The position numbers and the translations under genes were made by a program. A DNA stretch of 64,000 nt from a virus: IMG/VR virus record IMGVR_UViG_3300042673_002246. One strand, written 5' to 3'. Of this stretch, positions 1,208 through 63,204 are shown one piece after another. How positions within the stretch are numbered: position 1 is the first letter of the stretch; every line of letters starts with the position of its first letter. The notes under the pieces are model-generated. The model saw nothing but the letters and a program-made list of their open reading frames with translations, did no database searches and had not been told where the DNA came from.

Positions 1208-4200
1208 ATGGCCGACGAGACAGTCAATATAAAAATAAAGATTGATGCGAAGACTCGTGAACTTCGCAAGGTCATGGCTGAGCTTGGCGCGCTCAAGAAG
1301 ATGGAGCGCCGTTTTGCTAGCGGTAGAACCATTGAAAACTACGCCCAATCCACCACCCGAAGTATTTCAGGTATGGCGTCAAAGTGGAAACGCAGTTTCG
1401 ATGAAATAGATGCTGCTACCAAGATGACTGGAAAGTTTCTTGGTGGCTTCTTGAAGCTCGCCATTAAGAGCGTAATTATAGAAATGGCGCTACTTTCAGC
1501 AACAATGATTGGAGTTCACGCACTCTTCAAGGCTGGTCAATTCTTGGTCAAGGCGTACCAAGGAGCTATGCAGTTTTTAGCTGGTGGGGCTGCCGCAGCT
1601 GCGATGGCAATAGGAACAGTTGCTGCAGCAATACGTGAGCAGCAGGCAGCAATGTTTGCATATAGAGGAAAGGGAGCAAAAGAGTTCGGTTCATCCATGA
1701 ATCAAACGAGAATGGCAATGCGAAACCTTCAATCAGATGTTTCGCTTGCAGGACTTGGTGTCGATTCGCTGAACAAGGCATTTGGCGTTATGTCTAAGAC
1801 CATGAATATGGCGCAGATAAATGCGAGCAATAAAACAATCCGAGCTTTGATGGATTTTGGTTCAGCAGGACAGGACCCAGCAAAAGCTGTTGAACAAGTT
1901 GCCGCAGTAGTCGCTGCTCTCTCTGACCAGAAAAAGGGAATCGGCGAGGTAATGGCCGAAGCAAAAAAACTCGGTCCAGAAATGCAAAAAGCACTGAAAG
2001 ATGCGAATATTAAAACGAAAGACCAGTTTAAAGAGCTTTTATTTTCTGGAAAGCTTGCTGAAAAAGGAGGTGTTGCTGGACAGTTTGAAGCAGTAAACAA
2101 CACACTCATCGGACAACTTAAAGCATATTTCGGAGTAATCCGTAGCGAATTTGCAGACTTCGGCGACCAGTTCCTTGAGCCAACCAAAAAAGCATTTGAA
2201 GAAGTATTTGGGATTATACGAAGAGACCTTGCTCGAGCAAGCGCAGCAATTGCCGGAGGTCCTGGATTCGATTCATTTACCGGTGGTTTTGTAACGGCAA
2301 TAGACAAGCTGTCCAACTGGATGGTCACGATGTTGCGGGAGTATTTACCAAAAGCACAAGGAATGTTTGAAAGAATGGGCAATTGGTTTTCTAACTTCCG
2401 CCGTGGTTGGAACTTGCTTCTCGATAAGCTACGACCTCTCATAGATGGCGCTAGAGTTTTGTACAAAGCGTGGGACCCAATCTGGGAAGCCATTAAGCGT
2501 GGCGCAGACAACCTTACTCTTTTCAGAGAATTGCTTATCAAGAATGAAGACAGTGTTGCCGAATTTGGGCAGCGCATAGGCGACTTGATTGACAGCTTGG
2601 CTAAATATTTCATGAACATGAAAAAAATGTTTGCTGACATGGCTCCTTTTATAAACGACCTTCTCGCCGGAGTAAAAATGATGTTCGACCTTTTGTCGAA
2701 AATGCAAACTCTCGGTGCTGGAAATGGTCTTGCGTCCGCCCTTGCGCCTCTATTTGGTTTTGCTATAGCGGCACGAGGAATGAAGAGCGTTAAGGGCATG
2801 ATGATGCCTGGCGTCGGCGCAATGAGTACCCAGCAAATGAACGTAACAGCAGGAACAGTAAATGTTGGAAGTGCTGCACTTACAGGACCAACTGGCCCTT
2901 CGGAAATGTCAAGACTCGCCAGCGGAGGAAGGGCTGCAGCTGTCAGTGGTTCGCCGGAAGCAAAAAAGGGTCTCGCCTCAGGACTGGCTACTGCTGGTAT
3001 GGCATCGAAAGCTGGAGGTTCACCGAAAGAATTTCCAGGAGCTGGCTCCATTACTCCATCCACCGGATTCTTTCAGGCCCTTGGCATAGGGTATCGAGAG
3101 CCAACCAATAACGGGATGGCAGCAGCAACAGCCCGAAGGATTGAGGGATACGCACGGCGTCGCGATGCTGCGCTCGGGTTTACAACTGGCCCTGGCATTG
3201 GTTCGCGAATTGGTGCATCAATCATGGCACGCACTAGGGACTATGCATCAGCAGCAGCAATGACCCCGGCAGAAAGGGGTGGTCTCAGCGCATCAGAATA
3301 TGCCGCTGGCGGAGTTGGTGGTGGCGCTACATACGGAGAAGCAATGCGCAACTCAATGACGAGGGCCGGAGCGCATGTTCGTTATGGGGCACTTGCAGGA
3401 GCCGATAGGGCTCAACTATTTGCGCGAAGAGTTGGTACTGCTGCTTCACGCGGCATGGACTACATGAGACAGGCTGCATATGACCCAAATCTAAAAAATG
3501 CTGACGGACAAACCGTGGGTGGATATGTAAACCTCCAGGAACAAAGAAATGCCATACGAGCAAACCGAGATTCAGCAATCGATGCACGCGGCGGAAAATT
3601 TCTCGCAAGGCAAGCAGAAAATATACGTGCCATGCGACAGAATTTACGCTTAGAAAGAAACATGACAAAATTCGGTGCAGCGCAGCAGAAATTCGGTAAG
3701 AGCTTCGGTGGTCGAATGGGTACTGCGATGGGGCTTGGAATGGCCAGCCAGTATGCGCCAGAAGAAATGCGTGGAGCAATGGCGCTCGGCGCAACCGTAT
3801 CGCAGCTTGACCCGCGACTTGGTATCGCGGTAGCTGGTATAGGTGGCGCCATGACTGCTCGTGGCGGACTCAAAGGCGGCCTTGCTGGAGCAGCTGGCGG
3901 AGCAGCGCTCGGCGCGCAGTTCGGAGGAGCATACGGAGCACTGGCTGGTGCGGTAATCGGAGGAGTATTTGGCGTAATCAAAGGCAGCATAAATAAAGGT
4001 GCTTATGAAATGAAGCAAGCCAGAGAAGTAGCTCGTGAAAGTATCAGGCAAATATTTTCCGGCATTGCAACTGCTGCTGGAACACAATTTGAAAGAAATA
4101 AAAGAACATACGAAGCTGGCGGCATGTTAAGCGGTGGCGGTGCGTTCGGCGATGTCGCCAAAGATTTTGTTTCCAGGAGGATGCGTGCAGCCACGGGAAT

Positions 4201-60990: not shown

Positions 60991-61473
60991 TCATTTACTA
61001 CTATCCAATTCAGGAACTGAGTACCGGTCCATATCTAGTTCATTGACGATTCGTTCATATGTACGACAGAATGCTTCTCTGTCTGAATTGGTGTGCATTC
61101 CCCAGGCAGCGTCTCCCAGTGCCCTTACTGTAGAGCGGAGGGCGTCTGACATCTCAACTGGGTTACCTACACCAGAATTGACGTTAGAAATTACGGTAAG
61201 GAATTTACCCCAAGCAACAAGGGGGTCATCGAATGAGGTCATTTTTGTACGCCTATTTATTGTGGCACGGCGTATCTCGCCAGGCCTGGGCATGAACTGG
61301 GCACTGACCGCAATCTGGAGGAAAGCCTTCTTTGTCTCGTCGTACTCCAGGTCATGGAGTAAATCGTGCCAGGACGAATACAGGGTCATTAGTCTGTCTT
61401 CTGCCGAGGGGAGTGTTTGGTTGTAGGTGGCATAGGCCTGCTCTACCAATTGAACTAATTCGGTTTTAGTCAC
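60991..61473 (-). CDS. Replicative helicase loader/inhibitor-like protein (SPP1 G39P-like)
   Basis: WHDLLHDLEY...FMPRPGEIRR; follows a replication-initiator-like gene. Confidence 0.6.
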   Translation of the reverse strand: MTKTELVQLVEQAYATYNQTLPSAEDRLMTLYSSWHDLLHDLEYDETKKAFLQIAVSAQFMPRPGEIRRATINRRTKMTSFDDPLVAWGKFLTVISNVNSGVGNPVEMSDALRSTVRALGDAAWGMHTNSDREAFCRTYERIVNELDMDRYSVPELDSSK

Positions 61474-61565
61474 TCGTCATCCTCTTCTTCATTGCAGCGT
61501 AGGGGTCGGGTAATCCTATCCATCTCACAGTCGCATGGGGGTTTGCTCTTGCCGGCAATAATCAT
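61470..61565 (-). CDS. 31-aa microprotein
   Basis: MIIAGKSKPPCDCEMDRITRPLRCNEEEDDE; ATGA overlap upstream and GTGA overlap downstream. Confidence 0.55.
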   Translation of the reverse strand: MIIAGKSKPPCDCEMDRITRPLRCNEEEDDE

Positions 61566-61960
61566 TTATCCCCACTTATCCATTTATCTCGAGCTGTGTT
61601 GCCTGTCTTTTCTTCCAGCTTCCTTAGGAACATCTCGACGTGCTGTGCATCAATGAAGATGTTATGGATGTCGTTGTACTTCTTCCCGTTGGGGTTCTTG
61701 CCCATATGCCAATCAGAGACAAGGCATCCGTCTATAGCGTCCTTGCAGGACTTGATTCCGTAGTTCTTGATAGCCCATCCAATTCTTGCCGCGCGTTTGG
61801 CGTCCAGGACTGCAGCTCTTTTGGAATGGCGTTCTTTCCAATAGTCGAAAACTATTTTCTTTGCATCTTCAGAAATTGTTTCCGCCGCCGTGCGTTGGTC
61901 TTTGGTGTGCTGATTCGGACCGCGCTTCTTCTTCTCTCTGGGGAAGAGCTCATCAACCAT
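61562..61960 (-). CDS. Phage replication initiator C-terminal-domain-like protein
   Basis: VFDYWKE...AIDGC...WHMGKN..GKKYNDI..IF. Confidence 0.55.
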   Translation of the reverse strand: MVDELFPREKKKRGPNQHTKDQRTAAETISEDAKKIVFDYWKERHSKRAAVLDAKRAARIGWAIKNYGIKSCKDAIDGCLVSDWHMGKNPNGKKYNDIHNIFIDAQHVEMFLRKLEEKTGNTARDKWISGDK

Positions 61961-61966
61961 AGACAC

Positions 61967-61995
61967 ATCCTATCGTTGCTTTCCGCCACCGTCAA
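61967..61995 (-). promoter_or_regulatory. Sigma70/SigA-type promoter, leaderless transcript
   Basis: TTGACG-N17-TAGGAT, then 6 nt, then ATG 61960. Confidence 0.65.
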
Positions 61996-62149
61996 TACTT
62001 ATCGACACAGAAATGGTACAAACAGGAAAAAAAATTTTGCTTAATTTTCAATTGAGTAAAACTAAATTTCGTAAATGAAAACACTCTAAAGATTGGATTA
62101 ATCCAAAACTATTCTTACTTTCAACCAAGGAATAAATCCTTGAATGAAT

Positions 62150-62175
62150 AAAGAAGAACCCCTCCTTTGGAGGGG
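62150..62175 (-). terminator. Rho-independent terminator
   Basis: 7-bp GC-rich stem followed by a U-rich tract on the minus strand. Confidence 0.6.
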
Positions 62176-62314
62176 GTGTGGGGGAACCTTTGAAATTTTG
62201 CCAACTTTCGTGGGGGCGTGGCCGGCTAAGCCTTTTGTTTCCAAAAGGTTTTCAGGGCATGTAGGTTTTCCCACGTAATGTGTCGACACGTTGGACCGAC
62301 CTATTGGTCGATGG
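62150..62314 (-). ncRNA. Candidate small RNA (about 165 nt) with promoter and intrinsic terminator
   Basis: Promoter at 62321-62349; hairpins including CCTTTTG-GAAA-CAAAAGG; terminator CCCCTCC-AAA-GGAGGGG-TTCTTCTTT. Confidence 0.55.
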
Positions 62315-62320
62315 CGGTTC

Positions 62321-62349
62321 AAGCTAGCAGAGTCTTCCACCACCGTCAA
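62321..62349 (-). promoter_or_regulatory. Sigma70/SigA-type promoter with extended -10
   Basis: TTGACG-N17-TAGCTT preceded by TG; shares TTGACGGTGGYGGAA with the promoter at 61967-61995. Confidence 0.65.
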
Positions 62350-62443
62350 CCACCCAGGGCAAATTCTTTTCAGAATCTTTTCAGTTTTTTTATTTCTTGA
62401 AATATTTACATGGAGTCTTTAAAAATCGTGCTATGTTAGCGGG

Positions 62444-62546
62444 GCTCCTTCCGGAGTTACCCCCTTTCACCGGAATGGAGTTAACCCCAGGGTTGAGTCT
62501 TTCTGTTTTCTGGTAGGTGGTGACGGAAGTTGACTCCCCTGGGGTT
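62444..62546 (+). ncRNA. Candidate two-hairpin small RNA (about 103 nt)
   Basis: TGCTATGTT (62429-62437) plus 6 nt; two long stems whose G-U pairs favour the + strand. Confidence 0.5.
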
Positions 62547-62572
62547 TCCTTTAACCCGGAGAGCTCGAGCGG

Positions 62573-63022
62573 CTATTCGTCAGATTCTGGCTTTTTCCAC
62601 ATCCCTGAGTTAGGTCCGCCTAACTCTCTGTCCTGGAATGACCAACCAATCAATCCCCATGGGCCTGGCTTCTTTTTGCGTTTGGCCATCTTTTCTTCGA
62701 GAATGTGGGTAATGTCGATATCGAAGTCTGTCCTTCGATTATTGGTCGGGTGGTTCCATCGAGACTTCATCTGTTCGTACGCAATCTTTTGGGAAAGCTC
62801 ATGCAGCTCCATGCCATCGGGCGTCTTATTTCTTTCTTTTTCTAGCCTCCACGAGTCGAGCTCAGTGATGAGAGTTTTGGCCGCCTGGTCCAGCATCGCG
62901 TTCATTTTTTCCTCAGCTTCGTAATAGCGCTTTATGTCCCTTCGTCGCCGAAGCGTGCGCGAATCAAAAAACCACAAAATTGCAAAAACCAGATGCAGGC
63001 CCAGAGATACGTAAACGTTCAT
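62573..63022 (-). CDS. Hypothetical membrane-anchored protein
   Basis: N-terminal hydrophobic helix followed by a coiled coil. Confidence 0.6.
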   Translation of the reverse strand: MNVYVSLGLHLVFAILWFFDSRTLRRRRDIKRYYEAEEKMNAMLDQAAKTLITELDSWRLEKERNKTPDGMELHELSQKIAYEQMKSRWNHPTNNRRTDFDIDITHILEEKMAKRKKKPGPWGLIGWSFQDRELGGPNSGMWKKPESDE

Positions 63023-63204
63023 GAATTTTCCTCATTTTCTTCTTTTTCTTCAGCCGGCAGCCGGCCGCCAGATTCTTTTAAAATCTTATCTTTTTTGATT
63101 TCGCCCTCGAGCCACAACGCGTCCGCCTCGAGCTCAGCTTTCATTTCGATGATGTCTTCGCATTCGATGTCAGACATTCCAGAAAAGTTAAATTTTCCCA
63201 TCAT
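63019..63204 (-). CDS. Hypothetical protein
   Basis: 61-aa acidic ORF, overlaps both neighbours. Confidence 0.5.
   Translation of the reverse strand: MMGKFNFSGMSDIECEDIIEMKAELEADALWLEGEIKKDKILKESGGRLPAEEKEENEENS

Follow-up and report, generated by a model that had tools for sequence, protein, structure and literature searches.

A putative structured non-coding RNA gene with an invariant 27-nucleotide motif precedes the replication genes of a group of uncultured phages

The 64,000-nucleotide (nt) stretch of viral DNA studied here (IMG/VR record IMGVR_UViG_3300042673_002246; hereafter the window) belongs to an uncultured phage of 154 kb, and the 153,913-bp IMG/VR record G001 is 99% identical to it over the region considered. 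The minus strand of this region carries, at about 62150–62349, a candidate gene for a structured non-coding RNA, which is the subject of this study and lies just upstream of the replication genes. These comprise a replication-initiator-like gene (rep; 61562–61966, minus strand), which matches the replication initiation protein family phrog_16167 in PHROG (E = 7.5e-14), and a gene that PHROG relates to helicase-loader families (60991–61473). Close to the RNA gene are a WhiB-family gene (PF02467, E = 2.5e-15) and genes for a proteasome-like peptidase and a metallophosphoesterase. The host is probably actinobacterial, because the phage combines WhiB with leaderless starts and promoters that have a TGn-extended −10 element. 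The DNA of 61500–63100 has no match among 50,697 deposited phage genomes.

A first-pass annotation, made from the letters of the window alone, had proposed a promoter-to-terminator unit of about 165 nt at this locus, and our analysis agrees with that length: the putative RNA would run from a start near 62314 to about 62150. Upstream of the start, the −35 hexamer TTGACG (62349–62344) lies inside a recurrent phage motif, GACGGTGGTGGAAGA (62333..62349), and is followed after a 17-nt spacer by the extended −10 element TGc TAGCTT (62321..62329). The promoter has the composition expected for sigma-70/sigma-A recognition, namely a TTGACN −35, a spacer of 16–18 nt and a TAnnnT −10 with TGn, and this arrangement is kept in six subfamilies of related phages (described below). 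A promoter scan did not pick it, since TAGCTT equals TATAAT at only three of six positions. Within the RNA, hairpin 1 (AUCGACC-AAUA-GGUCGGU, 62295..62312) is part of the minimum free energy (MFE) structure; it is followed by the palindrome GUGUCGACAC (62280..62289), which is unchanged in the window's own subfamily (A), by the segment GUGGGAAAACCUAC (62261..62274) containing GUGGG-AAAA-CCUAC, by hairpin 3 (CCUUUUG-GAAA-CAAAAGG, 62231..62248) with its GNRA loop, and by hairpin 4 (GCCGGC/GUUGGC, 62200..62226) with the C-rich loop CACGCCCCCACGAAA. An invariant 27-mer, AAAGGUUCCCCCACACCCCCUCCAAAG (62165..62191), then provides the 3′ arm of a long-range stem and a C-rich tail containing CCUCC. The unit closes with a terminator-like hairpin, CCCCUCC-AAA-GGAGGGG (stem-loop 62175–62159), and UUCUUCUUUAUU (62147..62175 in all). 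This terminator is the first site listed by the terminator scan; in the folding model, its pair probabilities are 0.92–1.0. It has a 7-bp stem with six G-C pairs followed by UUCUUCUUUA. The promoter, hairpins 1, 3 and 4 and the terminator had all been proposed in the first-pass annotation, and each was recovered.

The RNA-folding check suggested by that annotation also supports a structured RNA. A 181-nt stretch folds at −55.2 kcal/mol, compared with −42.3 ± 3.7 kcal/mol for 200 dinucleotide shuffles (z = −3.44), none of which was as stable. The local hairpin GTGGG-AAAA-CCTAC that had been proposed is present as a sequence at 62274–62261, but the folding model prefers to pair GUGGG..AACCU with AGGUU..CCCAC of the 3′ end, enclosing hairpins 3 and 4. 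The pair probabilities of this predicted long-range stem are 0.96–0.99 (G41–G45/C133–C137 and A48–C51/G127–U130). Since L013, a natural variant, has the local GUGGG/CCUAC hairpin in its MFE fold, the GUGGG segment may adopt two conformations in the model. Hairpin 4 is formed only in part in the MFE structure.

Relatives were collected by a search with the rep protein, which gave 11 loci at 66–99% protein identity, and by exact-word scans with the 3′ end, which return identical copies only and located the element on 16 IMG/VR and 14 metagenome contigs. They form six subfamilies: A (the window, L306 and L013), B (L015 and L016/L025), C (L019, L026, L319, L313 and L023), D (L017), E (L014) and F (L308/L315). 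The 5′ halves of the RNA gene are not alignable between subfamilies. The 27-mer AAAGGTTCCCCCACACCCCCTCCAAAG is identical in all six, and lineages that were found via the rep protein alone (L007, L009 and L010–L012) likewise carry it unchanged. In addition, an extended −10 element, TGnTAnnnT, lies 106–169 nt 5′ of the 3′ motif in 13 of 13 elements from the six subfamilies; in subfamily C, the −35 and −10 are displaced together with their spacing unchanged. C-rich stretches occur at the place equivalent to hairpin 4 in subfamilies B and C. The position just upstream of the replication module, which the first-pass annotation had reported for the window, is kept on the same strand in every subfamily, and the loader-like neighbour proteins are 59% (L025), 44% (L023), 29% (L315) and 29% (L017) identical to that of the window. 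In the L016/L025 lineage, the initiator gene lies 2.5 kb off on the other strand, yet the RNA gene stays beside the loader-like gene.

Sequence changes among close relatives tend to preserve pairing. Hairpin 3 differs between the window, L306 and L013 by three compensatory pairs and one one-sided change, CCUUUUG/CAAAAGG being replaced by CUUUCUG/CAGAAGG and CUUCUCG/CGGGAGG, while the three subfamily A variants of hairpin 1 show two compensatory pairs, one one-sided change and one break. The compensatory pairs total five in subfamily A and at least nine in the long 5′ hairpin of subfamily B; with three to five sequences per subfamily, this covariation is qualitative evidence and carries no formal statistics. 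Several of the variant pairs are G-U, which on the opposite strand would turn into A-C mismatches, so that selection has acted on the minus strand, the one that the promoter and terminator define.

The first-pass annotation had seen no credible open reading frame (ORF) in the unit, and a comparison of frames bears this out: a conserved coding signal in the frame at 62098–62349 was looked for, and none was found. This 83-amino-acid (aa) ORF begins at the TTG of the −35 hexamer and has no PHROG match, and its frame is shifted by a 2-nt and a 1-nt indel in L013, the closest divergent relative. Subfamilies A, B and D each place the 27-mer in a different frame, with the translations KVPPHPLQ, KGSPTPPPK or RFPHTPSK. 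Frames are open on both strands, and on the opposite strand GGAGGGGGU-GUG resembles a ribosome site with a start codon, which could indicate a GTG-initiated ORF behind GGAGG; the peptides that follow, however, show no relationship from one subfamily to the next, and no third-codon position of the motif varies. We therefore regard a small protein gene, on either strand, as highly improbable. The element has several features of an independent small RNA (sRNA) gene: its own promoter, its own terminator, no conserved ORF and a structure with covariation. What we observe, namely the anatomy of the unit, its conservation, its lack of a coding signal, its strand and its synteny with the replication module, is best described as, most likely, a conserved gene in its own right that encodes a structured non-coding RNA and is co-regulated with the replication genes.

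The promoters of the RNA gene and of rep contain a common word. This word, GACGGTGG(T/C/A)GGAA(G/A), is 13–15 nt long, contains the −35 hexamer of the RNA gene and occurs seven times in G001, always on the minus strand and within the last 11 kb (142974–153753), whereas a control pattern occurs nowhere. Two copies fall in the window, at the RNA-gene promoter (62333–62349) and at the rep promoter (61995–61967). Across related loci (L001–L028 and L306–L320), there are 55 distinct copies or contexts of the GACGGTGGTGGAAGA word, seven of them within 2.4 kb in L014, and the central variable base of the GACGGTGG word is never G. The motif was rejected as a plain ribosome site, since real start codons lie 1 to 146 nt away, and as a plain −35, since several copies adjoin a start codon; the word may be a regulator site, a promoter element or a translation-initiation element. 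Its orientation, repetition and overlap with the −35 recall the operator/stoperators of Cluster A mycobacteriophages (PMC9283540). Specific complementarity between GACGGTGGTGGAAGA and the 27-mer was likewise rejected, its energy being equal to the shuffled mean; that the two have the word GTGGNGGAA / TTCCNCCAC in common is an unexplained coincidence.

The rep promoter, picked by the promoter scan, reads TTGACG-17-TAGGAT followed after 6 nt by ATG at 61960 (61958..61995, minus strand). The same geometry, TTGACG, 17 nt, TAGGAT or TAGAAT, exactly 6 nt and then ATG or GTG, recurs in four lineages of differing sequence (the window, L007, L009 and L306). Given that the −10 stands exactly 6 nt before the start codon, rep is predicted to be expressed as a leaderless mRNA from its own promoter. 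Directly upstream of its −35 lies TGTGTCGATAAGT (61997–62009), which resembles the palindrome GTGTCGACAC inside the RNA (62279–62291) and the word ACTAGATAAGT; a related word, TCGATAAGT, also closely precedes the rep −35. The composition profile shows an AT-rich spacer of about 150 bp (62010..62146, GC 0.22–0.30) that separates the terminator from the rep promoter; judging from its composition, it may be an unwinding element. AT-rich blocks of this kind flank the RNA gene on both sides (62010–62160 and 62370–62430), the first with small inverted repeats. On the other side of the RNA-gene promoter, a divergent extended −10, TGCTATGTT (62429..62437, plus strand; 143421–143429 in G001, offset 80,992), could serve a second candidate RNA at 62429–62595, which stands back-to-back with the first and has two long hairpins and a C-rich loop. 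A terminator-like site of this plus-strand candidate (62579–62591) overlaps the 3′ end of the gene at 62573–63022, and subfamilies A and B both keep the word GCCCCGCTAACATAGCACGA of this candidate. Pairing between the two RNAs was no better than that of shuffles.

The 3′ module of the RNA, a GGGGGAACC/GGUUCCCCC-type stem followed after 1–6 nt by a CCCCCUCC tail, is found well beyond these phages; the first-pass annotation had noted neither this wide distribution nor the repeated word around the −35. An exact-word scan located the 20-mer GGTTCCCCCACACCCCCTCC on bacterial genome contigs, in over 120 stretches; among the matches listed, it is carried, for example, by many bins of Gaiellaceae and other Actinomycetota and by Desulfarculaceae, Oscillospiraceae and Planctomycetota. 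The module also occurs in giant-virus bins, and one Desulfarculaceae bin (G004) holds 26 copies of the 19-nt search pattern GTTCCCCCACNCCCCCTCC. In the bacterial copies, the stem is formed by an upstream arm G(U)GGGGGAACC and by GGUUCCCCCAC, after which comes ACCCCCUCC; the long-range stem and tail of the phage RNA have the same architecture. Among viral contigs, 112 hairpins of the type GGGGAAC...GTTCCCC were counted, and 50 of them have a C-rich tail on exactly one side. Among the matches listed, 73 of 82 bacterial copies point the same way as the closest gene upstream (73:9), a bias that fits action as RNA downstream of genes.

The sequence UUCCCCC-ACA-CCCCCU is a pyrimidine mirror repeat, with the tail running parallel to the GGGGGAA arm. 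A pyrimidine-motif triple helix (C+.G-C and U.A-U triplets) needs a third strand that is parallel to the purine arm, and the module may fold in this way, a possibility that we put forward as a lead rather than a finding. In the Desulfarculaceae copies, the mirror symmetry reaches into the adjacent purine tract. An Rfam search of 19 loci with the 3′ motif returned tRNAs only and no family for the module. It is conceivable, though we hold it to be rather doubtful, that the module is an undescribed RNA motif common to phyla and viruses, acting as a triple helix or as an anti-Shine-Dalgarno-like strand beside a helix, and that the phage built an early regulatory RNA around it.

The surroundings of the module differ between its carriers. 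Some bacterial copies occupy exactly the interval that separates one gene's stop codon from the start codon of the following gene. Gaiellaceae and other Actinomycetota (for example, L066, L044 and L101) have an intergenic element of about 150 nt between co-oriented genes, with two hairpin-plus-C5-tail modules. Among the matches listed, 19 loci of this element have the upstream stop 83–95 nt before the 20-mer and the downstream start 20–31 nt after it; 12 loci have an exact 7-nt direct repeat, (A/G)TGAxCG, that gives the left stop and the right start, and nine of these 12 have an inverted copy in between. Judged from these sequences, the element resembles an insertion at ATGA stop/start overlaps that leaves both genes intact. 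In Desulfarculaceae (L030, L033, L039, L046, L097, L108, L116, L146 and others), the module belongs to a composite resembling repetitive extragenic palindromes (REP), in which a purine-rich tract comes first, then a perfect 19-bp hairpin with the module, then ACCCCCUCC, then a purine tract mirroring the inner 3′ arm (e.g., CAAAGAA / AAGAAAC) and lastly a second G+C-rich hairpin, whose sequence varies by copy while its pairing is kept. On giant-virus-binned contigs (L163 at 3143–3216 and other loci of giant-virus bins; L249 at 3698–4011), the hairpin plus tail lies between tRNA genes and in tandem units of 92–106 nt, and the opposite strand of many copies reads AAGGAGGGGGU-AUG-GGGGAACC, like a ribosome site with a start codon.

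Several familiar identities for the module were considered and rejected. Identity with a phage attachment site (attP) or a tRNA end does not apply to the 20-mer, whose bacterial copies are hairpin repeats and not tRNA genes. A CRISPR-repeat mimic is contradicted by copies that are single per locus or lie in repeats with conserved 'spacers'. A sequence-level mimic of the 16S rRNA 3′ domain, for which GGGGAACC would be expected in helix 45 (E. coli), was also rejected: the 16S genes of two motif-carrying genomes read CGGAAGG/GCGGAAGC at that place, and only CCUCC(UUU) is common to both.

Rfam 15 returned nothing for the RNA element, either for the whole window at gathering score or for 61900–62700 at E ≤ 10. 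By function, the nearest analogue is the 6C sRNA (RF01066; B11 of M. tuberculosis), the C-rich loops of which pair with the G-rich ribosome sites of panD and dnaB without a chaperone, so that the mRNA of the host replicative helicase (dnaB) is a 6C target in mycobacteria (PMC6486639). Like 6C, the phage RNA would be small and highly structured, has an actinobacterial setting and contains several runs of at least five C, and its link to replication is suggestive. Nevertheless, it is not a member of the 6C family: there is no RF01066 sequence or covariance-model match even at E ≤ 10, and the phage-encoded RNA is about 165 nt long as opposed to about 60–100 nt, has another architecture and carries its C runs partly in stems. 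A 6C RNA has two hairpin loops that each expose at least six C; in the predicted fold of the phage RNA, one C-rich loop, CACGCCCCCACGAAA, is exposed, and the two C5 runs of the 27-mer are paired. In Cluster A mycobacteriophages (L5, D29 and StarStuff), an abundant, stable and toxic early non-coding RNA of unknown role is made from Pleft (PMC5712189). That RNA is likewise an actinophage non-coding RNA at the head of an early/replication region, with an early promoter whose −35 overlaps a repeated asymmetric motif. It differs in occupying a region of about 500 bp at the genome end, with expression and toxicity demonstrated, while the gene described here is known from its sequence and its region has no DNA similarity to deposited phage genomes.

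Two further comparisons concern the module. The Cuckoo / alpha-r14 sRNAs of Alphaproteobacteria are multi-copy RNAs with CCUCCUCCC loops that present an anti-Shine-Dalgarno-like C-rich motif beside hairpins, and they resemble the multi-copy bacterial hairpin-plus-CCCCCUCC elements. However, their motif is in hairpin loops and not in a 3′ tail, they belong to one bacterial class, and no Rfam match links the sequences. Likewise, the bacterial copies of the module are dispersed, multi-copy and intergenic, some with short direct repeats at their flanks, as are REP, bacterial interspersed mosaic elements (BIME) and palindromes resembling miniature inverted-repeat transposable elements (MITE). REP families are, in contrast, species-specific, whereas the 20-mer is identical across phyla and viruses with a fixed asymmetric tail and a strong orientation bias, and the phage module is a single copy inside an RNA gene. 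We regard the phage RNA as a new family of a broadly known kind.

Among the functions offered in the first-pass annotation (sRNA, attenuator and replication-primer RNA), an sRNA fits best, and an attenuator is disfavoured for the reasons given below. We infer that the RNA is transcribed and acts in trans on target mRNAs. In the mechanism that we favour, host RNA polymerase would transcribe the RNA from a sigma-A-type promoter, whose −35 motif is common to the adjacent rep promoter, as far as the intrinsic terminator. The product would consist of a lineage-specific hairpin 5′ half and the invariant 3′ module (a stem with the 3′ arm GGUUCCCCCAC, and the tail ACCCCCUCC). Three segments could do the pairing: CCCCCAC of the hairpin-4 loop CGCCCCCAC, CCCCCAC of the 3′ arm once the local hairpin has formed, and the tail with its CCUCC. 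By annealing to the G-rich ribosome-binding regions of mRNAs, they would stop translation without a chaperone, as in 6C; candidate targets are host mRNAs with G-rich ribosome sites and phage early leaders carrying GACGGUGGUGGAAG. By analogy with 6C, we hold this base pairing of the C-rich segments to be tentatively the leading mechanism, at somewhat less than an even chance.

A number of observations weigh against it. Pairing of the 27-mer with GACGGUGGUGGAAG has an energy of −11.2 kcal/mol, which is the mean for shuffled G-rich 18-mers, and no convincing target was found among the start regions in the window. There is no co-variation with a candidate target, because the variable position of GGTGGNGGAA is T, C or A depending on lineage while the 27-mer stays constant. 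In the predicted fold of the window RNA, both C5 runs of the 27-mer are paired, which leaves the hairpin-4 loop alone clearly exposed, and subfamilies D and F have a weak terminator or none. Moreover, 100% conservation of 27 nt exceeds the need of a C-rich seed, and the presence of the 20-mer in unrelated bacteria and giant-virus bins suggests a constraint other than phage targets, for example a protein partner or a special fold.

That constraint is the core of an alternative in which the invariant stem-plus-CCCCCUCC module is a site for a conserved RNA-binding or processing protein, a 3′-end protection structure (possibly a C+.G-C triple helix) or a mobile hairpin, with the 5′ hairpins serving as scaffolding. 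The exact 20-mer in more than 120 bacterial loci of several phyla and in giant-virus bins, the 26 copies in one Desulfarculaceae bin, the constant combination of hairpin and tail (with 50 of the 112 viral hairpins tailed on exactly one side), the 73:9 orientation bias among the matches listed, the mirror repeat with its tail parallel to the GGGGGAA arm, and an invariance of the full 27 nt beyond the requirement of a seed all speak for it. Yet the protein form has no known partner; for the triplex, exact-match sampling gives no covariation to judge by, and the 5′ arm in the window, GUGGGAAAACC, has only three G, which makes a full triplex impossible; and the single conserved position within the phages shows no sign of mobility. 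On balance, we consider this alternative somewhat unlikely.

Two other explanations draw on the location of the gene and, in our judgement, are less probable again. The RNA could be an origin-linked transcript, in which transcription into the AT-rich block activates the phage origin or supplies a primer; the spot immediately upstream of the initiator and helicase-loader-like genes is kept in all subfamilies, the terminator adjoins the block of about 150 bp with its small inverted repeats, and the promoter is of the same type as that of rep. This is unlikely given that no iterons or initiator-box arrays were found beside rep, that the predicted RNA ends ahead of the AT-rich block, and that a C-rich RNA is not of the kind known for persistent primer hybrids; in addition, the initiator gene of L016/L025 is remote from the RNA gene, and the same module occurs in bacterial intergenic repeats unrelated to origins. 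The other explanation is a cis-acting leader, that is, an attenuator or a processive-antitermination signal for read-through into the replication operon. The order of promoter, structured RNA, terminator and replication genes on one strand is like that of lambda pR-nutR-tR1-O-P, the GUGGG segment has two alternative partners, and the 5′ half of the terminator lies within the conserved motif. A simple attenuator is nevertheless improbable, because rep has a leaderless promoter of its own, so placed in four lineages, 150 bp past the terminator. No alternative antiterminator pairing is conserved across subfamilies, the downstream gene differs by lineage, and no Rfam riboswitch or leader family matches; the element has neither the position of a 5′ leader of a regulated gene nor the mutually exclusive terminator and antiterminator that mark riboswitches and attenuators. 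A cis-acting leader is accordingly quite unlikely.

An independent gene for an early sRNA that would act in trans is, then, how we read the locus. The candidate is well delimited and conserved, and in a large group of uncultured, apparently freshwater phages it stands at the head of the replication module. To our knowledge, phage-encoded regulatory RNAs of Actinobacteria are almost unexplored. That phages, giant-virus bins and several bacterial phyla have an identical 20–27-nt motif of hairpin plus tail, with no matching Rfam family, implies a conserved partner or an undescribed structure. If the RNA proves to be 6C-like, then early in infection the phage would redirect translation, possibly that of host replication functions, by means of a C-rich RNA of the host's style.

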